Shown here piece by piece: positions 8,335-49,815 of a stretch of DNA of 49,833 nt (the first letter of the stretch is position 1; the number at the start of each line of letters is the position of its first letter). The DNA is from Escherichia phage phi2013, in the sequence record MT427400.3; one strand, written 5' to 3'. The notes under the pieces were generated by a model. That model saw only the letters and a program-made list of their open reading frames with translations. It was not told where the DNA came from and searched no databases. The translations under genes were made by a program, and so were the position numbers.

Positions 8335-8386
8335 TGCCTGCAATATGGTAAAATAGCACTAAATGTTAAACAAAGAGGATGGATTT

Positions 8387-14273: not shown

Positions 14274-15041
14274 ATGGCTTACGAAAATTTGTTCTTGCGC
14301 CCCGCGTGTCCGGGAAATATTTCTGATACTTCAACCTACAATATTGATGGAGCTTGTGTGGCTCAAGGTGACATTGGGTTCGGCTCAGCGGTTCAGGTTG
14401 TAGGCATCGTTGACGGTGTAAAAGTTGTGGCGGCGCTTCCTGATGGTGGAACTCCTTACGGTATCGCTTTCCGTTCCCAATATGAACACCTGAGCGGTAA
14501 AATCCTTGACGGTGAAGTGTGCAACGTCGTTTCTCACGGTCGCGTATGGACTCTTACTTCTCTTGGTGAGGCTCCCAGCTTGTTCTCAAAGTTACAGTTT
14601 GGGTCTGGTGGAGTTGTTACTGGTGGATCTGGTTCCGCAGGTTGGACATTTGCGGGTGGCTTTGTTAAGCATGAAGATGGCTACATCATTGAGGTTCAGG
14701 TGAAACAAAATGCTTTCATCGCTCCACCGCCACCGCCCCCTGTCGTTCTTGTTGAATCTGCTACAATCGCCACTGACAAGGAAAGCCCTCAACCAAACAA
14801 TGTTACGATCCAGTGTGTAGCTAATGCTCTTCCGGATAATGCAACCGATAAGACTGGTAAATGGTCAATCGACGCTACCAATATCGCCACTGTCGATCCG
14901 GACTCAGGTCTTGTAACTCCTGTTGGTGGAGAGGTAGTCGGTGATTTCAATATTACCTGGACGGCTAACGATGCCAGCAAGACGACGGCAACTATTGCTT
15001 ATCGCGTAGAAGCAGTGCCAACGCCAGAGGTTGATGCATAA
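14274..15041 (+). CDS. structural protein with poly-Pro linker and C-terminal Ig-like domain (paralog B)
   Basis: N-terminal domain paralogous to 13735-14211; APPPPPPVV linker; C-terminal region resembles a bacterial Ig-like fold. Confidence 0.5.
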   Translation: MAYENLFLRPACPGNISDTSTYNIDGACVAQGDIGFGSAVQVVGIVDGVKVVAALPDGGTPYGIAFRSQYEHLSGKILDGEVCNVVSHGRVWTLTSLGEAPSLFSKLQFGSGGVVTGGSGSAGWTFAGGFVKHEDGYIIEVQVKQNAFIAPPPPPPVVLVESATIATDKESPQPNNVTIQCVANALPDNATDKTGKWSIDATNIATVDPDSGLVTPVGGEVVGDFNITWTANDASKTTATIAYRVEAVPTPEVDA

Positions 15042-15084
15042 CATAAAAACACTTTGACGCTTTAACAAAAAGTGCTATTATTGA

Positions 15085-18785: not shown

Positions 18786-18861
18786 TCTGTAAAATCATCC
18801 TATCAACTCTATTCACTTAACTTTTAACAAAAAGTGCTATCAACCAATCAGGAGAAACATC

Positions 18862-19179
18862 ATGGCTAAATTCAATTTCGTGTTGGGCCAGCTTCCAGAC
18901 TTCAAACTTCCGGTGACGTTCACCATGCCAAACGGCGAGGATGCAACTATTATTTTTACAGTGCGCCACCTTTCCAGTAAAGAAGTGCAAGATATGTATG
19001 CGAAGCAGGGCGAAATGAATGATAGCGATTTCATCACTAAGATCGCGTCAGGCTGGAATCTGGAAGAAGAATTTAACGAAGAGAATACGCGTAAACTGGT
19101 ACAGTATTATCCTTCCGCAGCGTACAACCTGACGGCAACTTACATCAAGGCGCTTGCCGGACACCGCGCAAAAAACTAA
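18862..19179 (+). CDS. tail assembly chaperone (G-like, short form)
   Basis: 105 aa directly upstream of tape measure gene; ends at slippery site. Confidence 0.6.
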   Translation: MAKFNFVLGQLPDFKLPVTFTMPNGEDATIIFTVRHLSSKEVQDMYAKQGEMNDSDFITKIASGWNLEEEFNEENTRKLVQYYPSAAYNLTATYIKALAGHRAKN

Positions 19180-35487: not shown

Positions 35488-35940
35488 TTAACTAAAAATG
35501 CTATTGGTCGTTCCGATATCTTCCTTCTTCACGACGCGCATAAATTTCTTGTTCTTGCATCGCTTCTCAAGGCACTTGCCGTTACCGTCAAACTTCAGGT
35601 CGAATCGCAACCATGCGGCACGAAATCCTTTGCACCCCTGTCGGCGGTAAGCGCGATGCGCAGCTTCAGCGCCTTGCCATGAAATCATATTTCGATCTTT
35701 CCAGCCTTGCACCGTCTGATTGCTAACTTTTAGAGCCTTTGCGCAGGCCGCAGGGCCGCCGTAATATTCGATAAGAGCATCAAGTCGCGCTCGCAGTCCG
35801 GCGCGTGTTTCTTCTTTATGAATATAGAACCCGCAACGCTGTCGAGGCTTTTTATCTTTACCGCGCCGTGTTCCGTTGTTACCATTGATGTGACGTTTAT
35901 CGATTTTACCAGTTGATTCTGCGATACGTTGAATACTCAT
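35488..35940 (-). CDS. HTH DNA-binding protein (Cro/YdaS-like), candidate transcriptional regulator
   Basis: GGPAACAKALKVSNQTVQGWKDRNMISWQGA helix-turn-helix pattern; SD aggaga; divergent from helicase. Confidence 0.5.
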   Translation of the reverse strand: MSIQRIAESTGKIDKRHINGNNGTRRGKDKKPRQRCGFYIHKEETRAGLRARLDALIEYYGGPAACAKALKVSNQTVQGWKDRNMISWQGAEAAHRAYRRQGCKGFRAAWLRFDLKFDGNGKCLEKRCKNKKFMRVVKKEDIGTTNSIFS

Positions 35941-35953
35941 CTTGATTCTCCTA

Positions 35954-35996
35954 TAGCACTTTTTGCTAAAAACGTTTACTTTATGCCGTGTATTAT
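35954..35996 (+). promoter_or_regulatory. helicase promoter cassette (TAGCAC-N5-TTGCTA, 22 bp, TATTAT)
   Basis: tagcactttttgctaaaa; TTGCTA 35963-35968; TATTAT 35991-35996; the palindrome also covers the SD region of the divergent HTH gene. Confidence 0.5.
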
Positions 35997-36033
35997 AGCG
36001 TAAACGTTACAACGATTCAAAGGATTAATAGCC

Positions 36034-40330: not shown

Positions 40331-41482
40331 ATGTCACAAGCTAAAATCACTACCGAGCAACTTGTCGAAGAGCGCATGAACGGCCTTACACTTCGCGAGA
40401 TCGCGGAAAAGTACGGTATGCATATTCGAACTGTTGAGGCTCGACACGCAAAATTGGCAAAAGAAGGCCACTTTCACGGCAATGAGCATGTTGCTAAAAA
40501 CGTTCCTGAAGGCTTCATGGTAAAAGGCACATCAACAATGATTCGCGGTGATGGGACTGAGGTCGTGCGATGGGTTAAGACCGATCAGGACCGTGAGAAG
40601 ATTGCAGCTATGATGGAAGCTGCACGCATTGCATTTTGTGAAGACTTGCCGCGAGCAAAGCCAACTGAGCTGCTCACATCGCAAGGTCTTACAACCTCTA
40701 TTGGAAAGCTGGCACTATACCCGGTGTTCGATCTTCACATTGGCGCGCTTGCTCATAAGCATGAATGTGGAGAGAACTACTCTACCGACGTAGCGGAAAA
40801 AGTGCTTAGCGACTTCTTTAATTACGCGATCGATATTGCTCCGAACGCAGAGAAGGCCGTTCTTTTAATCGGCGGTGACTTCCTTCACTCGGACGGTCTT
40901 GATGCTGTTACCCCGGCAAGTGGTCACGTTCTGGATCAGGATTCACGATATGCAAAATTGGTGCATGTAGCTATTAGATCTGTTCGTCGCGCTATCGACA
41001 AAATGCTACTGAAACACAAAGAAGTCGAGGTCCAGGTTATCGAAGGGAACCACGATCAGTCTGGGATGATTTGGCTGCGCGCTGCAATGTCGGCATATTA
41101 TGAAGACGAGCCGCGAGTATTCGTTGACGTTAGTCCTATGATTCTGCATAAGACTCGTTGGGGAAATACCTTGTTGGGATACACTCACGGGCACACTATG
41201 AAAAAGGCAGAGACTCGACTCGCAGCTATGGCAGCAGATTTCCGCGCAGATTTTGGTGAAAGCAAATACGTGTACACGCATAGCGGTCACTGGCATCACC
41301 AGACAATCACTGAGCACTCACTCGGTATTGATGAGGTTCACGGCCAGTTAGGCGCGAAAGACGCATACGCAGCACGAGGAGGGTGGCGCTCGTATCGCCA
41401 GGCGGCTGTAATTGTTTACGATAAGCAATTTGGGGAAATCGGTCGTTTCATCTATCGTCCAGAAATGACAGGATCGCACTAA
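40331..41482 (+). CDS. calcineurin-like metallophosphoesterase with N-terminal HTH
   Basis: GDFLH, GNHD, GH and GHWHH metallophosphatase motifs; N-terminal LTLREIAEKYGMHIRTV helix-turn-helix. Confidence 0.65.
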   Translation: MSQAKITTEQLVEERMNGLTLREIAEKYGMHIRTVEARHAKLAKEGHFHGNEHVAKNVPEGFMVKGTSTMIRGDGTEVVRWVKTDQDREKIAAMMEAARIAFCEDLPRAKPTELLTSQGLTTSIGKLALYPVFDLHIGALAHKHECGENYSTDVAEKVLSDFFNYAIDIAPNAEKAVLLIGGDFLHSDGLDAVTPASGHVLDQDSRYAKLVHVAIRSVRRAIDKMLLKHKEVEVQVIEGNHDQSGMIWLRAAMSAYYEDEPRVFVDVSPMILHKTRWGNTLLGYTHGHTMKKAETRLAAMAADFRADFGESKYVYTHSGHWHHQTITEHSLGIDEVHGQLGAKDAYAARGGWRSYRQAAVIVYDKQFGEIGRFIYRPEMTGSH

Positions 41483-41516: not shown

Positions 41517-41546
41517 AACCACATCGAAAACAAAGAGGCTATATCA

Positions 41547-41723
41547 TGAAGCTAGTTAAGTGCATCCGAAATGATTCCAAAACGCTTCCATTCCGCGTAA
41601 ATCAGATCTATAGTGTTGGTTATGATTTCGGTGGTGGATTATTTGAGGTTTACGACGGGAGAGGCTCGGCAATCCATGTTCCTCTGAACGGTCACTACCT
41701 GGAATTTATTGAGATAGATTAAC
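41547..41723 (+). CDS. small hypothetical protein (58 aa, below track cutoff)
   Basis: SD aaagagg before ATG 41547. Confidence 0.3.
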
Positions 41724-42544: not shown

Positions 42545-42945
42545 TGAAACTGAAGAAAACGTGCATTGCGATTGCAGTGGCTGTTGGCGTTATTTCCCTA
42601 TCCGGTTGTTCGACGGCATCTGCCCTGAGCGGTTTAATCGGATCTAAACCGGAAGTTACAGCACAAATCGGAGAGGAGAACACAAAGCAATTAGCAGGAG
42701 TAACCGCAAAATCCGAAGATAAGCGAGATGTTAAAGTTGAGAAGTCCAATGTAGGAAAGATTGACTCTTCCTTGAAGAAGTCAATTGAAGTGTCAACCAT
42801 TAAGGCTAACACGGTTAACGCTGAAAGCATCACAGTAACAAAACCGGAAAACTGGTACGATGCTATCGTTGGCTGGATTCTCGTTTTTATCGGTCTATTG
42901 CTGGTTTATTTTTCACTTCGTAAGGACGAAAAAAAGGAGGCTTAG
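42541..42945 (+). CDS. unimolecular spanin (lipoprotein signal plus C-terminal TM)
   Basis: N-terminus [23 protein letters not shown] (lipobox LSGC); C-terminus [13 protein letters not shown] transmembrane; follows endolysin. Confidence 0.7.
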
Positions 42946-42960
42946 CCTCCTTTGTTATTT
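42930..42960. terminator. bidirectional rho-independent terminator
   Basis: A6 ggaggc tta gcctcc then T-rich. Confidence 0.55.
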
Positions 42961-43066
42961 GTACCTTTTTACGTTAAGTAGTAACTCCCCATCCTGGTCG
43001 CAAAGATTATGCTCGCTTTCGTTACTGGCCCTCATTGAAGTGAGCAACAGACTCAACAACCCTTGC

Positions 43067-43474
43067 TCAAATTCTTCTTTCGTAAGCTGGAGCCTTGCGC
43101 ACAATTCGACGTTCCGATCTATCAATGTTTCTACGTTCTCCAAACAAATCCTCATCACTCATCTCTCCAATGTGCATCATTTCCCACGTATACCGATTGT
43201 TGTAGCCATCAATACACATCAGCTTCATCATTACCGGGCGCTTAATCTTTCCCTTGCACCAGTAAAACCCATCCCTGCAATCAAGATAACCCTCAGTTAC
43301 ACAGCGTGAGCAAAACTCCTTAGATAGCGCGCTTGTAAATTCACGGCGAGTCATTCCTGCGGCCTTAGCAAATCGCTCACTTTCCTTGTGGGCGTATATA
43401 AATTTCGCTATGTGCTGTCGAGTGTATTTGTCGTAACCTTCGCAGAACCTGAACAGATCTAAAAGAAGAAGCAT
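43067..43474 (-). CDS. hypothetical Cys-rich protein
   Basis: 135 aa with 7 Cys; overlaps stop of upstream gene. Confidence 0.5.
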   Translation of the reverse strand: MLLLLDLFRFCEGYDKYTRQHIAKFIYAHKESERFAKAAGMTRREFTSALSKEFCSRCVTEGYLDCRDGFYWCKGKIKRPVMMKLMCIDGYNNRYTWEMMHIGEMSDEDLFGERRNIDRSERRIVRKAPAYERRI

Positions 43475-43478
43475 ATTA

Positions 43479-45047
43479 TTAACCCATCAGTCGAGGGTTG
43501 ATGAAAACAATATCATCAATCCGGCAAGTGTAGTTCATCTCTTCGAGCGTGATCAGCAGGCTGTCGATTCGCTCAGATACTTTCTGTTGACCGTTGAACG
43601 GCGTAACGTTCCGGCACTTTGCAACGATGCTATGAATAGGTGCGCGGCCTTTGTTCTTCTTCGCGATCTCAGTGATAACATCAATCAGCTTACGAGATTC
43701 AGCCTCATCACCTGCATACCCGGCAGCGCTGGCAGATGACAGGTAAGTCCTGGAAAGCTCATTGAAGATCATGATCGCTTCCTGCATTGTTTCAAGGTCA
43801 ATCTCACGATTAGATCGGTTCGGTGATTCACCCTCCCAATTCTTGATCGTGTGAAGAACTGAAGCAATGCGCAAAGCGTGCTTATCGAACTTACCGAGAT
43901 GACCGCGTAGCATTGAGTGAGAGTATTTGCCCCCGGCGGCGAAATCAGGCTCCATCGCCTGGCGAGCAAGGTTTAATTCACGCATAGCGTTACGGCTTAC
44001 AGAGAGAACGACGTTGTCCTCCTTCATAATGTTGTGCACGAGTCTGTAATATTTGCTAACCAGTCCGCGATCTACTTCCTTATACAGCGCATCACCATTT
44101 TCATCGCAAAGAATACGAGTACCTAAAAGCGGTTCCTCTCGAACCAGGAGGAAACGCTCAGATACACCGATACCGCGCTGGCCTGCGTCCATGATACCCT
44201 TGATTGTTTCATCCTGCGCAATGACGCAGATCGAACCGACCGGGCAAAGAGATAAGTTGTTGTCCTGATTTGAACGCGCGACCTCCATATGGTTTTTATC
44301 CCACGCCTTAAGAATAAGCTCGCTGTTTGATTTCTTATCAGAACCGCCATAAGTCAGACCAAGCAATGTATTGATTGCCGTTGCTTCATCAGATATTACG
44401 GAAAAGTGGCCTTGAACAGCCGCAACTTTCGCAAGACCTTCAGGTGTAGGATCTGATACCGCGAAAACAATATCAGCCATCTTCTTGATCTTTTCTTCCA
44501 GTTTTTCCTTGTCTTCGTACAGAGCCGCCGTCGTGTTACCCTTTGGATCGTTTTTTATTTCTTTCTCGACCTGACGTAGCTGACTGGTTAAACGTATGCG
44601 CTCCTTTTTGCGCTCTTCATTCAGTCGCTGAATCTCCGCACGCATAGGTGTAATCGCCGCTGAGTTAATAGCGGACTTACCTGTTGATGGTGGCTGGCTG
44701 ATTACCATGTAAAGCGCGGTCGGCTGTTCTTCGCCGTGATATTGCACCCAAAACTTCCCGAGCATAGCGGCTGAGATGCACCCAATGAAATGAGCGTACG
44801 CAGACGAAACAGGGAACTGTACAGACTCAGCCTTTGCCTTTGCATATTCGAATACCAGGTTATCGCCACCTAACGAAATCAGCGGGAACTTATCGTTTCC
44901 ACTGTTGATATCGATCGGATCTTGCCAAAACGAAACTGAATCCCCATAGCTGTTTTCACGAATTGCGATCGACACCGGATTAACTCCAGTGCTATTTGCG
45001 ATCTCAATAATCTGTTGGTAATTCAATTTTGGCTTAATATTAAACAT
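43479..45047 (-). CDS. P-loop NTPase with SF3-helicase-like Walker A (PPSTGKS)
   Basis: start at ATG 45047 after SD aaggag; Walker A ISQPPSTGKSAI; 522 aa. Confidence 0.55.
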   Translation of the reverse strand: MFNIKPKLNYQQIIEIANSTGVNPVSIAIRENSYGDSVSFWQDPIDINSGNDKFPLISLGGDNLVFEYAKAKAESVQFPVSSAYAHFIGCISAAMLGKFWVQYHGEEQPTALYMVISQPPSTGKSAINSAAITPMRAEIQRLNEERKKERIRLTSQLRQVEKEIKNDPKGNTTAALYEDKEKLEEKIKKMADIVFAVSDPTPEGLAKVAAVQGHFSVISDEATAINTLLGLTYGGSDKKSNSELILKAWDKNHMEVARSNQDNNLSLCPVGSICVIAQDETIKGIMDAGQRGIGVSERFLLVREEPLLGTRILCDENGDALYKEVDRGLVSKYYRLVHNIMKEDNVVLSVSRNAMRELNLARQAMEPDFAAGGKYSHSMLRGHLGKFDKHALRIASVLHTIKNWEGESPNRSNREIDLETMQEAIMIFNELSRTYLSSASAAGYAGDEAESRKLIDVITEIAKKNKGRAPIHSIVAKCRNVTPFNGQQKVSERIDSLLITLEEMNYTCRIDDIVFINPRLMG

Positions 45048-45076
45048 CACAATAAACTCCTTAGTTGACGGTGTGA

Positions 45077-45120
45077 ATGATACACCGCCAATGGTACACG
45101 CGTTTTGCAAAAAGTGCTAT
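45077..45120 (-). promoter_or_regulatory. promoter cassette (minus strand)
   Basis: minus-strand tagcactttttgcaaaa, 22-bp spacer, TATCAT, upstream of ATPase gene. Confidence 0.45.
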
Positions 45121-45123
45121 TGG

Positions 45124-45540
45124 TTATAAGTATTTGGCCTCAAAGGTTGTGCCATCTGCGATACTAAAACCGATCTCTTCGCGAAATAATGTCCAACGGC
45201 ATCCGTCCTCATCAAAGATGTAACCAGCTACGCCGCCGAGAGCGCGACCGCTTTCTACCTGGTAACGCTTTCCAACTTTGAATGATTTTTTCATCGGGTT
45301 GCGATGGTCAAGTCCGGTGCACTTTAGCGTCTTTGTTTTCAACTCGGTGAATTTCGCGAAGAAGATTTCATCAGTTCCGTGAATCTGTAATTCATCATGC
45401 TTTTCAAGTTTTAAATACTTCCCGCATTTTAGTTTTACTTCGCGAGTACCATCATAGCGCTCACGACCTTTATACAAATTGTTTACTTCGAATCCTGTGA
45501 TCTTGTCTGCGGAAGTGCATTTCAGTTTGATGGATTTCAT
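45124..45540 (-). CDS. hypothetical protein
   Basis: 138 aa, SD aggag. Confidence 0.5.
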   Translation of the reverse strand: MKSIKLKCTSADKITGFEVNNLYKGRERYDGTREVKLKCGKYLKLEKHDELQIHGTDEIFFAKFTELKTKTLKCTGLDHRNPMKKSFKVGKRYQVESGRALGGVAGYIFDEDGCRWTLFREEIGFSIADGTTFEAKYL

Positions 45541-45577
45541 GGCGCTAGCTCCTGATTGGTTATCTTGAATAAGGCCA

Positions 45578-45620
45578 CTTTATCAAATGACCTTACGGCA
45601 ATATTAACAAATCGTGCTAT
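45578..45620 (-). promoter_or_regulatory. promoter cassette (minus strand, approximate)
   Basis: minus-strand tagcacgatttgttaa then about 21 bp then TGa-TAAAGT. Confidence 0.4.
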
Positions 45621-45830
45621 TTACCAGGGAATATAATTGTCGTCGTCCTCATCAATATCATCACCAGGTAACTCGAAGTCTGGATTATATTCGCTTTCTG
45701 CGTCCATATCCATATTCCCTAGAGCGTCATCAAGCGTAATTTCTTTATACGCAACCTTTATACACCATTCCGCACTAAGCCCAGCATCAAGAGCGGCAAA
45801 ATAACGAGTCCAGAAATTATCCTGCTCCAT
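45621..45830 (-). CDS. small acidic protein with SSB-tail-like C-terminus
   Basis: about 30% Asp/Glu; ends DDIDEDDDNYIPW, compared with SSB tail DDDIPF. Confidence 0.5.
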   Translation of the reverse strand: MEQDNFWTRYFAALDAGLSAEWCIKVAYKEITLDDALGNMDMDAESEYNPDFELPGDDIDEDDDNYIPW

Positions 45831-45833
45831 CAA

Positions 45834-46058
45834 TCAACCCCATGAATTAATGTAAATTGAGTTAGCCTCAAGCGTAGCGCGCACATCCGCATCTGTTGCA
45901 TTTACTAAGCGCGAGCCTGGCGTGCTGCCGATAACGTTATTACCGTTACGAGCCTTAGTTACCGTCATTGAAATAAAACCGGAAGACTTATCCATTTTGA
46001 TAACTACACGGCCTTTAGCGTTCAGGTGCGTGATGATATTCTCAACTTTAATGCTCAT
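45834..46058 (-). CDS. hypothetical protein
   Basis: 74 aa, SD aagga. Confidence 0.5.
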   Translation of the reverse strand: MSIKVENIITHLNAKGRVVIKMDKSSGFISMTVTKARNGNNVIGSTPGSRLVNATDADVRATLEANSIYINSWG

Positions 46059-46091
46059 TTTTAATTCCTTTGTTTCGTTTGGTGTGGGAGT

Positions 46092-46136
46092 AATATACCT
46101 TACCCCCTATTGTATGTCTTTAGCAATTCGTGCTAT
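46092..46136 (-). promoter_or_regulatory. promoter cassette (minus strand, approximate)
   Basis: minus-strand tagcacgaattgctaaa then about 22 bp then TATATT. Confidence 0.4.
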
Positions 46137-46275
46137 CAGTACTCAGAAATTACTTTGCACTCTTTGATTGTTCCACCCAAAACTACTTTCTGCATCATTG
46201 CTTTTTGTTGGCTATCGTAAACGCGAACATTTTTTACTCTGTTAAATTTGCCAGTATAGAAGGTGTGAATATAAA

Positions 46276-46596
46276 TCATTTTTTACCGTCCCACGTTTGA
46301 TATGCCGTAACCAGGTTAATGCTGTGGTCGAACTCGTCAACGCTAAGCGATCCGATTCTAACAAGCTCTTTGTCGTGCTTAATATCAATCATCCGGCTAT
46401 ATGGATGGCCTGGCACATACTTGAACAGTCGTTTGCTGTCGGCAATGTCTGCGTTGATTCCGTAGAATCGGCCTACCGCCGCCTTAACGCGCTCCATGAT
46501 GTTTTTTTCGTGGATTGCCGCCGCGTTATTTAGTGCCGCAACCGTGCTTCCGTTAATCTTCGGTGACTTCGTTGTGATTTTGTAAGTGTGGTTCAT
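46276..46596 (-). CDS. hypothetical protein
   Basis: start moved to ATG 46596 after SD aggggg (track ORF extends to 46662). Confidence 0.45.
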   Translation of the reverse strand: MNHTYKITTKSPKINGSTVAALNNAAAIHEKNIMERVKAAVGRFYGINADIADSKRLFKYVPGHPYSRMIDIKHDKELVRIGSLSVDEFDHSINLVTAYQTWDGKK

Positions 46597-46612
46597 CATT
46601 CCCCCTAACCAG

Positions 46613-46813
46613 TCAGGATAGCTTTCGCGCTTCATCAATGATAACAGGCTCAAGGCGTTCAAGTCGAACGCGGAACGAGTTCATAAATCCTTCGTTGTTC
46701 TTCAGTAGTTCGAATGCGTCTGTAGCTTCAATGGCGCTATTCCCCATGTAGGCAATTACTTTTTTCTGAGTCTTACGTGAGATCGCCACTACGCGGTAAA
46801 TATTATCACTCAT
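46613..46813 (-). CDS. hypothetical protein
   Basis: ATG 46813 after SD aagagg; 66 aa. Confidence 0.4.
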   Translation of the reverse strand: MSDNIYRVVAISRKTQKKVIAYMGNSAIEATDAFELLKNNEGFMNSFRVRLERLEPVIIDEARKLS

Positions 46814-47177
46814 ACAATGCCTCTTTAACACGATCCGCTACACATGAGTTAACGGTGATTGAATAGTTAGCCACGCCCCATAATGCAATATTGCCAAGCT
46901 CGGTACGCATTGATGGATTGTTTAGCTGAATGATTGTCTCGCCAGTATCTTTATCGACGAAGCGAGACACGCCAGAATGGTCCACCACGCGCGTTACTCG
47001 GTTCACGCACTCCATTGCATCACTTACACCATAATAGGCGGTTAGGGCGGCTCTCACGGCCTTCTCTTGCTTGTTGTAAATCTTGCGAGCGATGTTCTCG
47101 ATCGCTACGCTTTCTTTCTCGTCAGTCTGGATTGCCGTGCTGGCTGAGAAGTCCAGATCTGTGAACTGCTTAAACAT
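46806..47177 (-). CDS. hypothetical protein
   Basis: ATG 47177 after SD acgagga; promoter cassette immediately upstream. Confidence 0.5.
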   Translation of the reverse strand: MFKQFTDLDFSASTAIQTDEKESVAIENIARKIYNKQEKAVRAALTAYYGVSDAMECVNRVTRVVDHSGVSRFVDKDTGETIIQLNNPSMRTELGNIALWGVANYSITVNSCVADRVKEALYE

Positions 47178-47208
47178 GATTATTTCCTCGTTTGCTGCTG
47201 ATGGGATG

Positions 47209-47252
47209 ACTATACCAGCCATCCCGGATGCGCGTTTAGCAAAAAGTGCTAT
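47209..47252 (-). promoter_or_regulatory. promoter cassette (minus strand)
   Basis: minus-strand tagcactttttgctaaa, 22-bp spacer with gggatg/catccc dyad, TATAGT. Confidence 0.5.
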
Positions 47253-47438
47253 TTAGAATTTTACTTCCTCAACAAGCTCAACCATTTTATAACCCAGGCG
47301 ATATGAGTCGCCGAACAACAACAGACCCATAAATTCATCGTTGGTTATCGACTCCTTACCAACAGTTTTAAGTTCTCCGTTGTGAATCACAGTATCGCCG
47401 ATCTTGATTTCTGATTTATGCACTAATTTCGTTTTCAT
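47253..47438 (-). CDS. hypothetical protein
   Basis: 61-aa ORF. Confidence 0.4.
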   Translation of the reverse strand: MKTKLVHKSEIKIGDTVIHNGELKTVGKESITNDEFMGLLLFGDSYRLGYKMVELVEEVKF

Positions 47439-47453
47439 TTGTTAGCCTGTTAA

Positions 47454-47639
47454 TTAAAAGAACGCTACATAGTTTGCAATACCTTTTGCATCGTCGTTAG
47501 GCATCGCCTTGACAGCCAGGTCATAACCAGCCTCTACCTTCTGCTTTGCTGATTCTTCGTTGTATCCCCAAATAACCAGGATTTTAACTACGTTTTCTTT
47601 GTTCAGAACTTTAAGGTATTTAGTGATGCGACGTGCCAT
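47454..47639 (-). CDS. hypothetical protein
   Basis: ATG 47639 after SD gagga; track start 47654 is TTG. Confidence 0.45.
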   Translation of the reverse strand: MARRITKYLKVLNKENVVKILVIWGYNEESAKQKVEAGYDLAVKAMPNDDAKGIANYVAFF

Positions 47640-47672
47640 TTTGTTTTTCCTCAATCTCGTTTCGATGAGGTA

Positions 47673-47717
47673 ATTATGCCAAATCGCACCGATCGAGTTT
47701 TAACAAAAAGTGCTATT
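47673..47717 (-). promoter_or_regulatory. promoter cassette (minus strand)
   Basis: minus-strand tagcactttttgttaaa, 22-bp spacer, CATAAT. Confidence 0.45.
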
Positions 47718-48404
47718 TGCGATCGCTTTGAAAAATCCACGAGGAGATAAGGAACGTATCAGCTTCGTTTTGGCAGACTTGCCGCCCAGCTTGTTTTGCT
47801 GTGCAGAGTACCCGTCAGGCAGGTTTACAGGCTTCCTTTCTGGCATGACAAAGTCGTCCGAAGTCCAAAGACAAGTTTTCTTCGGGTAAGCATCGCGCGG
47901 CGCAATATACATCGGGAACCAGGGGTGTGCGTCATTCTCAGGAAGATAGCCGCCATACTCCCAGGGATTGAAAGTGTGGTCAGCCTTTCGCCAGGCTGAT
48001 GACAGGACGCTAACCGGATTCTCAATGATGTAAGTCACACCCAGGCTATCACCGATGTTCGCGGCAATCCGGGCGGTGGCAACAGCTTTCTCCTGGAATA
48101 GCGGATCACGTTTACGCTTGCTGGCAAAGTGTCGAGCACCACTAACGGCCAGGTCAGTGCACGGCGGGAAGGCCATAATGAAATCCGGCTTGCCATACAC
48201 ACCCGCGATCGCATCACGTTCGAACGTTTCATCAATGAACACGTTCACATACTCAATGTTGGGATGCTCTACCCGGGCATTGTACTTTGCATAATCTCCG
48301 TGATCGGCTCCGTCAAAGTTGAAGCACATCACTTTATGACCTTGCTTTGCCAGTTCATGACCAGCCAGGCCCGAGCCGTCGAATAGTGACCAGATTAATT
48401 TCAT
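47700..48404 (-). CDS. compact DNA (cytosine-5)-methyltransferase-like protein
   Basis: motif I-like LFDGSG, motif IV-like FPPC, motif VI-like IIENP; SD aggagg; only 234 aa. Confidence 0.5.
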   Translation of the reverse strand: MKLIWSLFDGSGLAGHELAKQGHKVMCFNFDGADHGDYAKYNARVEHPNIEYVNVFIDETFERDAIAGVYGKPDFIMAFPPCTDLAVSGARHFASKRKRDPLFQEKAVATARIAANIGDSLGVTYIIENPVSVLSSAWRKADHTFNPWEYGGYLPENDAHPWFPMYIAPRDAYPKKTCLWTSDDFVMPERKPVNLPDGYSAQQNKLGGKSAKTKLIRSLSPRGFFKAIANSTFC

Positions 48405-48613
48405 TTCGTTACCTCCTGGAAAACAGTTTGTCCGCTATTGGTCAGGAAGCGCCCGATCTTATTCATTGACCGGAACACGCCGATCTGATTCTGATGATTG
48501 TCAGTCGCGAAGTAACCGCCATCAATAAGGTAGATTTCATACACTGATTGATTCGTGAAGCTGTCAGTGCTGACGCTAACACATCGTACGGTACATTCAA
48601 ATTCTGGTTCCAT
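48401..48613 (-). CDS. hypothetical protein
   Basis: 70 aa; stop overlaps methyltransferase start. Confidence 0.45.
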   Translation of the reverse strand: MEPEFECTVRCVSVSTDSFTNQSVYEIYLIDGGYFATDNHQNQIGVFRSMNKIGRFLTNSGQTVFQEVTK

Positions 48614-48645
48614 TGCCTGAGTCCTCTGATTGGTTGATGTGATGA

Positions 48646-48690
48646 ATCATACCCTGCCGACCTGGCTGAGTCGTTAGCAAAAAATGCTAT
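48646..48690 (-). promoter_or_regulatory. promoter cassette (minus strand, approximate)
   Basis: minus-strand tagcattttttgctaa then about 22-23 bp then TATGAT. Confidence 0.4.
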
Positions 48691-48740
48691 TCCAATAATT
48701 GCTCATTATTCCATCAATAGCGGAATAGGTGGAATAATTC

Positions 48741-48830
48741 TGATTGCGATTGATTGCAAATGATGAAACGTGATTATTGCATGGTTTGCAACAGTTGGTT
48801 GATTTGTTGCTTAGATTGCAATGATTGTGA
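48741..48830. repeat. imperfect tandem array with 10-bp period (TGATTGCnAT-like units)
   Basis: tgattgcgat / tgattgcaaa / tgatgaaacg / tgattattgc at 48741-48780, further gattgcaatgattg copies to 48830. Confidence 0.55.
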
Positions 48831-48832
48831 GA

Positions 48833-48839
48833 GGGGGGG
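48833..48839. repeat. G7 homopolymer tract
   Basis: ggggggg in an otherwise AT-rich noncoding region. Confidence 0.7.
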
Positions 48840-49000
48840 ATCTAGTGTTGCCCGGTTCGCCTGGTAGTCATCTCCATTTTTAGCAAAAAGTGCTATCGAT
48901 TACACTTTACCTTGTCACAGATGTAATATTTGTCTAGAATCGCACTTGTGACAAAATTACACACTGTGACGCCTCTAAATATACATATAGATATATGTAT

Positions 49001-49017
49001 CTATATAATATATATAG
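49001..49017. repeat. 17-bp AT-rich repeat CTATATAATATATATAG (copy 2)
   Basis: exact match to 29902-29918. Confidence 0.65.
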
Positions 49018-49240
49018 TGTTTTCTTTATTTATATATATAGATAATTATATTGTAATAGTTGTGTATAGTTGTCTTACATTGTCTAGCGTACTGTTGGCA
49101 TATTTCTATCTGCATGTTTATATATACAGTACTTTTTTGAGAGCTATATATTTCTATAGTGACTCTAGACAGCTAGACAAATGTTACACAGCTTAATATC
49201 GGCTCGCAGTCATTGACAGCTCTGTATCGCACTGTCACAA

Positions 49241-49255
49241 TGTCAATTGTTGACA
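49241..49255. repeat. perfect palindrome TGTCAA-TTG-TTGACA
   Basis: 6-bp arms; nearby related half-sites tgtcaca, tgtgaca, ctagaca, tgtctag. Confidence 0.6.
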
Positions 49256-49299
49256 CATTATGACGCCATTTACACACGAATAGACAAAGAGGATATATT

Positions 49300-49815
49300 A
49301 TGAGCAATACCAATCAGGAATTAAAAATCACCGATATGATTCGACTAACCTGCGATGCAATGTATCGCGACAAAGGCATGAATGAGTTCTCTTTCGTGGC
49401 TGATGATATGGCCCTCGAGGCCGCGCGATTCTACTTCCGTGACCAGGAGGTAAGTGATAGCGATCTTGAATCTGCCGCTGCCGGATGGGTGGACCAGAAC
49501 CAGGGTGAGGTGGAGAAGCGATTCAAGTCTGCTTTCATTACGCCAATCATTACCCGGCACTTTTGCAAGTATGGCAAGGTGGCAAAGGTGAAGGTAGGCC
49601 GGAATGACGCTGCAATCACAATGATAACGGTTATCGTTACCGACGAAGAGATTCCCGTGAAGAAGCGCCGCAGTCGGAAGAAAGTTAGCCTGGCCGATTG
49701 CCTGGATTCGTTTGTGGTTGATGTGGGTAAACTGGCTGATAGCGAATTGATGACTCGTGACGTAAACGAGATCGTTCGCCAGATGAAGGCGCATATCGAA
49801 AAGTGTGGACTGTAA
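49300..49815 (+). CDS. hypothetical protein (first rightward gene after the noncoding hub)
   Basis: 171 aa; SD aaagagga; stop lies inside the terminal 26-bp repeat. Confidence 0.55.
   Translation: MSNTNQELKITDMIRLTCDAMYRDKGMNEFSFVADDMALEAARFYFRDQEVSDSDLESAAAGWVDQNQGEVEKRFKSAFITPIITRHFCKYGKVAKVKVGRNDAAITMITVIVTDEEIPVKKRRSRKKVSLADCLDSFVVDVGKLADSELMTRDVNEIVRQMKAHIEKCGL

Follow-up and report, generated by a model that had tools for sequence, protein, structure and literature searches.

The window analysed here is the whole 49,833-nucleotide (nt) stretch of record MT427400.3 (49.8 kb), which is essentially the complete genome of Escherichia phage JMPW1 (Tunavirus, Drexlerviridae), a T1-like phage. 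We examined its leftward block of mostly small genes (43067–48613) and the repeated promoter-like cassettes that stand in front of them. Over positions 43000–48700, the identity is 100% with Escherichia phage JMPW1 and ~92% with dozens of further Tunavirus genomes, and the GC skew across the block is negative. The block is one of two divergent arms of small genes that leave a 0.7-kb non-coding hub (48614–49300) between them, and the rightward arm continues via the window start into the terminase and late genes. RefSeq annotates 13 leftward coding sequences (CDS), gp66 to gp78, in the block. A preliminary description of this DNA had all genes running leftward between the lysis cassette and the hub, which the RefSeq CDS confirm from the bidirectional terminator (42933–42953) to the hub; the block of twelve genes that it reported is real, and its count was wrong, the missed gene probably being the 47-aa gp71. 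From the hub to a bidirectional terminator, the 13 genes form six units of one to four genes. A cassette directly precedes only 6 of the 13 genes; there are therefore six transcription units, and not a promoter of its own for each gene, as had been claimed. The cassette positions given earlier (45077, 45578, 46092, 47209, 47673 and 48646) correspond to the −10 ends of six real cassettes, located before the helicase gene, gp68, gp70, gp74, gp76 and gp78. As a gene set the block is ordinary, being the already catalogued and annotated leftward early-gene arm (T1 genes 1–10 plus extras). The main value lies in the cassette, through which a specific, cheaply testable mechanism can be proposed for a published repeat.

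Each cassette starts with a conserved 20-bp box at −50 to −31, with the consensus ATAGCAC-NNN-TTGYTAAAAC, in which the NNN is variable and rich in A and T (Table 1). In our alignments, which covered 83–93 boxes from five genomes and four lineages, the box is followed by an unconserved spacer of 18 nt, rarely 19 nt, without a −35 hexamer, and then by an extended −10 element (TGn-TATAAT-like). The −10-like hexamer starts precisely at box position 39, that is, after an 18-nt gap, in 76 of 93 boxes, and every other offset accounts for at most 9. Among those 76 boxes, 63 have a G at −14 and 36 have TG. The discriminator is C-rich, and box position 51, the predicted +1, is an A in 68 of 83 boxes. 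The TTGYTA within the box was rejected as an ordinary −35, being 22 nt from the −10. A canonical −35/−10 scan of the block returned 15 matches against 11.8 expected, which is no enrichment, and picked only one cassette −10, that of cassette 4 (46097–46092), with a weak 4-of-6 first hexamer AAGACA. The core box motif, on the other hand, has 30 strand matches in the window against 0.5 expected. There are ~24 boxes genome-wide, all but two of them oriented with transcription. Because the same cassettes also precede the replication, Dam, exonuclease and right-arm genes, they do not single out the leftward block.

The JMPW1 box is, by its sequence, the published Drexlerviridae repeat, a 21-nt intergenic direct repeat aaATAGCACnnnTTGnTAAAA whose description comes from phage TLS and which has also been seen in T1, Rtp and Rogue1 (PMC11447400). 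It has the same consensus as the TLS repeat, is likewise intergenic and transcription-oriented, precedes start codons by ~76 nt and can be divided by its central triplet into the same T/G/A subclasses. The function of the TLS repeat was left open, with a stoperator, an enhancer site or an UP-like element suggested, and the 2024 re-annotation of TLS lists only three sigma70-like promoters (PMC11447400). To the published 21-mer we add its fixed 18-nt distance from an extended −10 that is followed by a +1 A, a hairpin across the −10, identity to the marbox consensus in class II geometry, and coincidence with indel breakpoints. The predicted 5’ leaders (box positions 51–60, for example 47202–47193 on the minus strand) begin with a conserved A-T-C-G-A-A-A-C-G-A, and many cassettes also share CCAATCAGAGGA around the ribosome-binding site. 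Since the leader start and the region of the ribosome-binding site are shared too, the repeat unit is ~65–85 nt and not 21 nt. A scan of viral contigs for the box gave only five single, uninformative matches and therefore offers no view of its distribution outside cultured phages. A literature search on Drexlerviridae transcriptomes returned nothing relevant.

The preliminary description had called the unit a palindrome cassette, which does not hold for its conserved part. In the 83 boxes, A1, C7, T11 and A17–A19 have no symmetric partners, and the position opposite the invariant G4 in the dyad holds C in 44 sites and T in 38. With this asymmetric conservation, the simplest reading of the box as a true palindrome or dimer site was rejected, and it is retained below as part of an alternative. 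The true inverted repeat is a second one, of variable sequence, that flanks the −10; with a G-run and a C-run as its arms, it is present in about half of the cassettes. The cassette spacers are variable and G/C-rich. In 33 of 82 cassettes, the spacer pairs with the discriminator on the other side of the −10 through at least 6 consecutive Watson-Crick pairs, compared with 4.6% in cross-paired controls. In cassette 3, for instance, the arms GGGATG and CATCCC form the hairpin. A further set of cassettes has a GC-rich hairpin within the spacer, in some cases with a T-run. The mean folding energy is −10.9 kcal/mol for the sense strand and −8.9 kcal/mol for the antisense strand, against −4.8 ± 2.6 kcal/mol for the shuffled control, and stems of at least 7 pairs with G-U allowed occur in 39 of 78 sense and 27 of 78 antisense sequences (cross-paired, ~10–12%). 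Because the sequences of the hairpin arms vary while the pairing is kept, the base-pairing is under selection, and the tolerance of G-U pairs hints that it acts in sense RNA, i.e., in read-through transcripts.

The box also matches the marbox, the DNA site of the host AraC/XylS-type stress activators MarA, SoxS and Rob. The consensus of MarA derived from chromatin immunoprecipitation, GCAHWWWWTGYYAAA, is quoted in PMC6900184. In the JMPW1 window it has 12 perfect matches and 24 at ≤1 mismatch, against 1.19 expected. The corresponding counts, perfect and at ≤1 mismatch, are 11 and 22 in T1, 12 and 21 in TLS, 8 and 15 in Rtp, and 8 and 14 in KP36, compared with 0 and 0 in HK578 (Dhillonvirus, the nearest outgroup) and 0 and 2 in lambda. 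The matrix of 83 boxes from the five genomes fits all specified positions of the marbox consensus. Its invariant positions are those of the marbox A site (GCAC) and B site (Y-AAA), its spacer is variable and rich in A and T, and its position 14 is C or T, as in the marbox consensus. The phage box is identical at 16 of 20 positions to the mar marbox region upstream of marR and at 14 of 20 to the micF box. The marbox consensus has an information content of ~22 bits, and it is very unlikely that an arbitrary phage motif would match some E. coli regulator by chance, spacing and orientation included.

The placement of the box agrees with this match. At class II promoters, a forward-oriented marbox overlaps the −35 (PMC6900184). 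In E. coli micF, the box ACAGCACTGAATGTCAAAAC is followed by 18 nt, a −10 of TAGAAT and 7 nt to the micF 5’ end; in nfo, whose box we located by consensus, ATCGCATAAACCACTACATC is followed by 18 nt and TATCAT. The phage cassettes therefore share with micF and nfo an identical forward orientation and 18-nt gap to the −10, as well as the same kind of asymmetric 20-bp box, whose A site is GCAC and whose B site is YAAA, the −35 overlap, the lack of a usable −35 and the C-rich discriminator. With the +1 at box position 51, the phage GCAC occupies −47 to −44. In the cryo-electron microscopy structure of the Rob-RNA polymerase-micF complex, Rob contacts −47G and −45A and blocks sigma region 4 from the −35 (PMC9178005). 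Two differences from the host were also observed. The phage cassettes, with their putative Rob/MarA/SoxS sites, add a TG extended −10 and a stem-loop across the −10, and the phage has ~20 near-consensus copies within 50 kb whereas the sites of the host mar/sox/rob regulon are scattered and degenerate. A MarA-like activator encoded by the phage was rejected: hmmsearch with a MarA+SoxS profile, validated against 1BL0, found no AraC-family or MarA-like protein among the six-frame open reading frames of at least 40 aa (best E 0.92).

We propose, with our confidence evenly divided, that the cassettes could be class II promoters dependent on host Rob/MarA/SoxS. A monomer of a host AraC/XylS activator would bind the box, either Rob, which is constitutively present and abundant in the cell, or, under stress, MarA or SoxS. 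Bound there, it would stand in for the −35 contact and bring in the sigma70 polymerase, as at E. coli micF. The genes of both arms and those for the helicase, Dam and exonuclease would then be expressed immediately, with no phage-made factor needed, and their expression would thereby be coupled to host stress and bile-salt signals. We suggest only tentatively that the Drexlerviridae as a family have replaced the −35 of ~15–24 promoters per genome with near-consensus MarA/SoxS/Rob sites in exact class II geometry, and have in this way let early/middle transcription be driven by, and tuned to, the response of the host to antibiotics, oxidative stress and bile salts. In addition, the phage genome may be a sink for these regulators. 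The earlier suggestion of early expression fits with promoter-like cassettes that unmodified host RNA polymerase could use, and early timing is no more than ‘presumptive’ in the literature. The anatomy of the cassettes, the motif statistics, the geometry, the conservation, the breakpoints and the folds are observed, and we infer the reader of the box, the start sites, the early timing and any protein function beyond family assignment.

Several points weigh against a host reader of the box. Most of the Rob in unstressed cells is reportedly sequestered and inactive, and box position 19 is an A, where the older marbox consensus has Y. The identity of the reader has been deduced from the DNA alone, and our literature searches found no paper that ties T1-like phages to marboxes or Rob. 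Neither micF nor nfo has anything like the hairpin across the −10, which the marbox model also leaves unexplained. In addition, a conserved helix-turn-helix (HTH) regulator of the phage has a canonical promoter of its own with a box in its 5’ untranslated region (UTR), a layout typical of a regulator that acts on sites of its own. Finally, the paper on a Keio-collection screen with the T1-like phage LL5 leaves rob, marA and soxS unmentioned and reports none of them as needed. The LL5 result could be due to redundancy within this trio, or to an extended −10 that has basal activity, and is in neither case support.

In T4 middle promoters (MotA box, with sigma appropriation by AsiA) and in lambda cI at PRM, a phage-encoded activator touches sigma region 4. 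They share with the proposed reading of the cassettes a conserved box that replaces or overlaps the −35, by way of which the host polymerase is redirected to many promoters at once. The MotA box is centred at ~−30 and read by a phage activator, whereas the JMPW1 box is centred at ~−41 and equals a host regulator site, and the phage has no AraC-like protein.

The HTH regulator itself provides the alternative that survives best, though we regard it as unlikely. This Cro/YdaS-like protein (35488–35940, T1 gp23) would be made first from its own sigma70 promoter and would read the box as a dimer on the pseudo-dyad TAGCA-N5-TGCTA centred at ~−42, either activating all cassettes in the class II style of lambda cI at PRM or shutting them off later like a stoperator. 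The half-sites TAGCA and TGCTA are indeed spaced by one helical turn, and the protein is conserved in T1, TLS, Rtp and KP36, with Cro/YdaS-like HTH matches in all orthologs. It has a leftward near-consensus promoter, TTGAAT-17-TATAAT, whose −10 overlaps that of the opposing helicase cassette, and a box lies at ~+12 to +31 of its own transcript, so that the layout is switch-like and autoregulatory. Stoperator or enhancer roles were also proposed in the TLS paper (PMC11447400). However, the conservation of the box is asymmetric, as described above, the boxes follow the direction of transcription, and the recognition helix differs by genus (NQTVQGW, LKTVWGW, PQAVEEW and IQVVQQW) although the box is identical. 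Such a reader would also leave the match to the host consensus and the identical spacing of micF and nfo unexplained. The Cro-like protein may well be a competitor or shut-off factor. The face-to-face promoters span 35941–36033, with the −10 of the rightward helicase cassette (TATTAT) at 35991–35996 and the box at 35953–35972 in the regulator 5’ UTR. The regulator also contains an invariant Arg/Lys-rich stretch at its N-terminus.

We compared the gene content of the block between JMPW1 and two relatives, LeonhardEuler and T1. In LeonhardEuler, gp75 and gp76 are replaced by a different gene and gp78 is absent. T1 is without gp75, gp76, the methyltransferase gp77 and gp78, the four hub-proximal extras carried by JMPW1. 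JMPW1 in turn lacks T1 gene 8, an HNH endonuclease gene that in T1 is inserted before the helicase gene, precisely at the upstream edge of the box of cassette 6. The breakpoints of the four events mapped in these two comparisons all lie at cassette edges (47256/47654, 48405/48622, 47253/48633 and 45121/45126), the absence of gp78 in LeonhardEuler and T1 having the breakpoints 48405 and 48622. The cassettes thus mark the breakpoints of gene gain, loss and replacement. Cassettes of the left arm are also ~80% identical to those of the right arm over 60–85 nt. HNH homing-endonuclease genes occur in the leftward arm of relatives at T1 46085–46624 and TLS 47608–48120.

This pattern resembles that of the promoter-early stem-loop (PeSL) cassettes of T4-like phages, which border indels among small early genes (PMC2839356, PMC4122927). 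Both are composites of a promoter and a stem-loop with a G-run and a C-run, recur in front of early genes that are small and variable, and coincide with the edges of inserted, deleted or replaced segments. They differ in phage family and sequence, and in that PeSLs have an ordinary early sigma70 promoter with a −35, whereas the phage cassette has a marbox-like element in place of the −35 and a stem-loop that straddles the −10 and is not a clear terminator. It is conceivable, if improbable, that the cassettes similarly need no activator and are plain extended −10 promoters, with the box kept mainly for curvature or UP-like effects and for recombination, in a mobile cassette that shuffles small genes. 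Most cassettes have TG or G at −15/−14, an extended −10 can work without a −35, and the breakpoints, the similarity between the arms and the composite nature of PeSLs all fit this reading, as does the LL5 screen paper, which reports no rob phenotype. But recombination requires homology and not one particular 20-mer, and the box is invariant across subfamilies in which its surroundings cannot be aligned. The box to −10 distance, fixed to a single nucleotide, and the identity to the marbox consensus would also be left unexplained, and a role in shuffling is compatible with the marbox explanation rather than exclusive of it.

Very improbable is a role in RNA, in which a 5-bp hairpin UAGCA-CNNNU-UGCUA in read-through transcripts would act like lambda boxB/nut and a phage protein, e.g., the invariant basic N-terminus of the Cro-like regulator, would permit passage or processing at the next stem-loop: position 14 as C or T keeps its pairing with G4 (G-C or G-U), the variable positions 8–10 fall in the loop, and the downstream hairpins tolerate G-U better on the sense strand, but the stem is weak (three A-U of five pairs) and without covariation in 83 sites, where its positions are simply invariant, Rfam is empty, and an RNA element needs neither a −10 distance fixed to the nucleotide nor a match to a DNA-binding consensus.

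T1-like phages are among the commonest coliphages, are notorious contaminants in laboratories and fermentations, and are used in therapy cocktails. The marbox reading gives a testable answer to the question that the authors of the TLS re-annotation left open about the 21-nt repeat. If it is true, the early programme of the phage depends on the regulators of efflux-mediated antibiotic tolerance (acrAB-tolC, micF), and salicylate, redox drugs and bile salts would affect the growth of the phage, which bears on phage-antibiotic combinations and on behaviour in the gut. It would also be a clear case of a virulent phage that outsources promoter recognition to a host activator. The gene block, a catalogued set of hypothetical proteins, matters less and offers three leads: a candidate mimic of the SSB tip, a winged-helix protein as putative partner of the DUF3987 helicase, and the cassette-bounded swapping of genes.

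Some boxes lie outside the cassette context. Two are in reverse orientation in the rightward late region. The first, at 15059–15078 (minus strand), is between a gene ending at 15041 and the major capsid gene and is conserved in T1 and TLS; the second, at 18821–18840 (minus strand), closely precedes the ribosome-binding site for the gene at 18862 and is conserved in T1. These reverse boxes before capsid and tail genes were rejected as class I sites, since the start codons follow too closely for a promoter to fit in between; their role would be to give short antisense transcripts or to serve as protein roadblocks. Another box, at 8353–8372 (plus strand), stands directly before the small terminase gene and has no −10, its ‘spacer’ being filled by the ribosome-binding site and the start codon. 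It is conserved in T1 and, as a possible binding site, may control the read-through of right-arm transcription into the late genes.

Table 1 Cassettes, genes and terminator of the leftward arm, with positions in the window (promoters and +1 sites are predicted)
Feature	Position	Strand	Description
Cassette 1 (gp78-gp77)	48639–48690	−	Box 48690 to 48671, ATAGCATTTTTTGCTAACGA; 19-nt spacer; TATGAT 48651–48646; +1 at ~48639
Cassette 2 (gp76-gp75)	47666–47716	−	Box 47716 to 47697, ATAGCACTTTTTGTTAAAAC; 18-nt spacer; TGg-CATAAT 47678–47673; +1 at 47666
Cassette 3 (gp74-gp71)	47202–47252	−	Box 47252 to 47233, ATAGCACTTTTTGCTAAACG; 18-nt spacer; TGg-TATAGT 47214–47209; +1 at 47202
Cassette 4 (gp70-gp69)	46085–46136	−	Box 46136 to 46117, ATAGCACGAATTGCTAAAGA; 19-nt spacer; TATATT 46097–46092
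Cassette 5 (gp68)	45570–45620	−	Box 45620 to 45601, ATAGCACGATTTGTTAATAT; 18-nt spacer; TGa-TAAAGT 45582–45577; hairpin AAGGTCA/TGGCCTT
Cassette 6 (helicase gene and gp66)	45070–45120	−	Box 45120 to 45101, ATAGCACTTTTTGCAAAACG; 18-nt spacer; TGt-TATCAT 45082–45077
Hub box	48877–48896	−	No −10-like hexamer at standard spacing; conserved in T1
gp78	48401–48613	−	70 aa; phrog_16851, E 4.7e-40; first gene behind the hub-proximal cassette
gp77	47700–48404	−	234 aa; short C5-cytosine DNA methyltransferase by motifs and fold; phrog_757, E 2.4e-84
gp76	47454–47639	−	61 aa; Pfam DUF7421, E 1.1e-41
gp75	47253–47438	−	61 aa; phrog_3623, E 2.5e-33; part of swapped module 47257–47653
gp74 (T1 gene 1)	46806–47177	−	123 aa; phrog_11577, E 4.5e-81
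gp73 (T1 gene 2)	46613–46813	−	66 aa; phrog_6503, E 1.3e-41
gp72 (T1 gene 3)	46276–46596	−	106 aa; phrog_10555, E 1.6e-72
gp71 (T1 gene 4)	46136–46279	−	47 aa; phrog_3955, E 3.9e-26; RefSeq CDS
gp70 (T1 gene 5)	45834–46058	−	74 aa; phrog_4344, E 5.8e-38
gp69 (T1 gene 6)	45621–45830	−	69 aa; small, acidic; C-terminus ...DEDDDNYIPW
gp68 (T1 gene 7)	45124–45540	−	138 aa; phrog_2684, E 6.5e-54; family-wide conservation
gp67 (T1 gene 9)	43479–45047	−	522 aa; DUF3987 P-loop nucleoside triphosphatase annotated as DNA helicase
gp66 (T1 gene 10)	43067–43474	−	135 aa; winged-helix protein
Bidirectional intrinsic terminator	42933–42953	both	Ends the leftward block and the lysis cassette

The genes of the block were assigned by profile searches. 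All 13 have a PHROG family (E 1e-26 to 1e-233), and for seven of the proteins (47–123 aa) the matches are to PHROG families of unknown function only. An NCBIfam search with nine block proteins gave no matches. The block is thus, as first described, a set of mostly small uncharacterised genes beside a divergent control region, and its hub-proximal part varies between relatives and includes the methyltransferase. gp74 to gp66 are syntenic orthologs of T1 genes 1–7, 9 and 10 (NC_005833), with 89–95% nucleotide identity. In T1, TLS, Rtp and KP36, only gp68, the DUF3987 gene gp67 and gp66 recur in the same order beside the lysis cassette, and we consider this trio to be probably a replication module rather than anti-defence cargo. 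Synteny of all genes with replication or structural functions in relatives, which the preliminary description had set against its view of the block as a seat of host-takeover and anti-defence functions, is found in part: these distal three are syntenic and look replicative, and the hub-proximal genes are variable. It is reasonable to expect putative genes against host defences in the variable hub-proximal half. In the rightward arm of TLS (1865–1945) and Rtp (2432–2524), a gene beside that of a polynucleotide kinase is annotated as Stp-like, an activator of PrrC, the anticodon nuclease of the host; the arms thus carry defence-related cargo in some relatives.

The 522-aa gp67 was correctly recognised as a P-loop protein. 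It matches Pfam DUF3987 (E 3e-42) and phrog_2373 ‘DNA helicase’ (E 1e-233), contains a Walker A motif SQPPSTGKS and an hhhhDE Walker B motif, and is kept in T1, TLS, Rtp and KP36. Its Walker A had been likened to that of SF3 helicases. DUF3987 and PHROG were its only matches: no SF3 family profile was hit, and a PDB sequence search gave no solved homolog. The gp66 gene follows the helicase gene by 2–63 nt in these four phages. Its product had been described as a Cys-rich protein, which is misleading. Four of the six cysteines vary (C55, C58, C66 and C73), which leaves C11, conserved to at least 90% in alignment A1, and C87, invariant in A2, so that a zinc-finger or Cys-rich metal binder was rejected. 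By fold comparison, gp66 is a winged helix, with a three-helix bundle and a beta-hairpin wing. A PDB sequence search with gp66 gave no matches, Foldseek gave marginal matches to primase and helicase segments of Vibrio phage Vc1, and a profile search among 1.84 billion representatives turned up just 20 relatives, all short, with no fusion to a primase or helicase.

The alpha protein of satellite phage P4 consists of a primase, a helicase and a winged-helix origin-binding domain, and a resemblance of gp67/gp66 to it is a lead only. Both have a P-loop helicase-like module followed by a winged-helix module, whereas the parts in JMPW1 are separate genes, with the primase gene at a distance of 8 kb. 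In T1, the annotation of the primase notes a similarity to P4-type alpha proteins. The idea of a split P4 alpha stays a weak lead because only the gene order and the marginal Foldseek matches are behind it. The third member of the trio, gp68, has a weak DUF7244 match (E 0.011) with two weak DUF7244-like repeats. Two of its segments are ~32% identical to a paralog, the 58-aa DUF7244 protein at 41546–41722, and orthologs are found in Rtp and KP36.

The acidic protein with a tail like that of single-stranded DNA-binding protein (SSB), noted earlier, is present as gp69. It has 63 homologs, T1-like without exception. In 16 aligned homologs, the last four residues, which follow the acidic run, are conserved best, with I65 and P66 invariant and Y64 and W67 at least 90% conserved. 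Searches for Pfam, OB-fold and SSB profiles gave no match to gp69, and because it has no Pfam match, it is not an SSB. As a reasonable hypothesis, gp69 is a candidate mimic of the C-terminal tip of SSB. A literature search on SSB-tail mimics returned nothing relevant, and a mimic of the gp69 type is undescribed there. The phage SSB (32096–32512, plus strand) ends in ...STFDDDIPF, which copies the C-terminal tip of E. coli SSB. With gp69, the phage would therefore carry two proteins with SSB-like tips.

For gp77, the earlier assignment as a C5-methyltransferase-like protein was confirmed by invariant motifs and by a fold match to DNMT3A/3B. It belongs to a large family of 225–250-aa phage proteins, with 4838 homologs, some of which match PF00145. 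In an alignment with 18 homologs, G10-S11-G12 (motif I), P80 and C82 (motif IV, PPC) and E128-N129-P130-V131 (motif VI) are invariant, and P81 is at least 90% conserved. The AlphaFold2 model has a predicted local distance difference test score of 86.8, and its top 37 PDB fold matches are DNMT3A/3B catalytic domains (E 1.5e-6). gp77 itself gave no match to Pfam (PF00145) or NCBIfam, and the PDB sequence search was also empty. The methyltransferase is predicted to modify the DNA of the phage itself. In the BASEL study, the methyltransferases of Drexlerviridae showed no simple relation to resistance against restriction. The stop codon of gp78 overlaps the start codon of gp77 (ATGA).

We also noticed that the RefSeq start codon of gp74, an ATG at 47222, is over the −10 of its cassette and upstream of the predicted +1 (47202). 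A shorter form that begins at the ATG at 47177 is used in T1 and LeonhardEuler. The RefSeq start is probably a mis-annotation, too far upstream, and 47177 fits better.

The terminator at 42933–42953 is the sole convincing intrinsic terminator of the block; the other matches of the scan, 8 in total against 6.2 expected, have stems of 5–6 bp and lie inside genes. An Rfam search of the whole window gave no matches. At the other end of the block, the hub (48614–49300) contains an AT-rich core (~48973–49160) with ATATAT-type repeats. The core is flanked by a 16-nt inverted repeat, TGTAATATTTGTCTAG (48922–48937 and 49173–49188, 94% complementary), and several short TTGCAA-type repeats are also present in the hub, which is a candidate origin or early control region. 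Elsewhere in the window, a 383-aa metallophosphoesterase (‘DNA repair exonuclease’, T1 gene 16; 40331–41482, plus strand) has its own cassette in front. Its N-terminal HTH has weak matches to sigma-70 region 4 and to homeodomain-like families, which makes it an unusual fusion.

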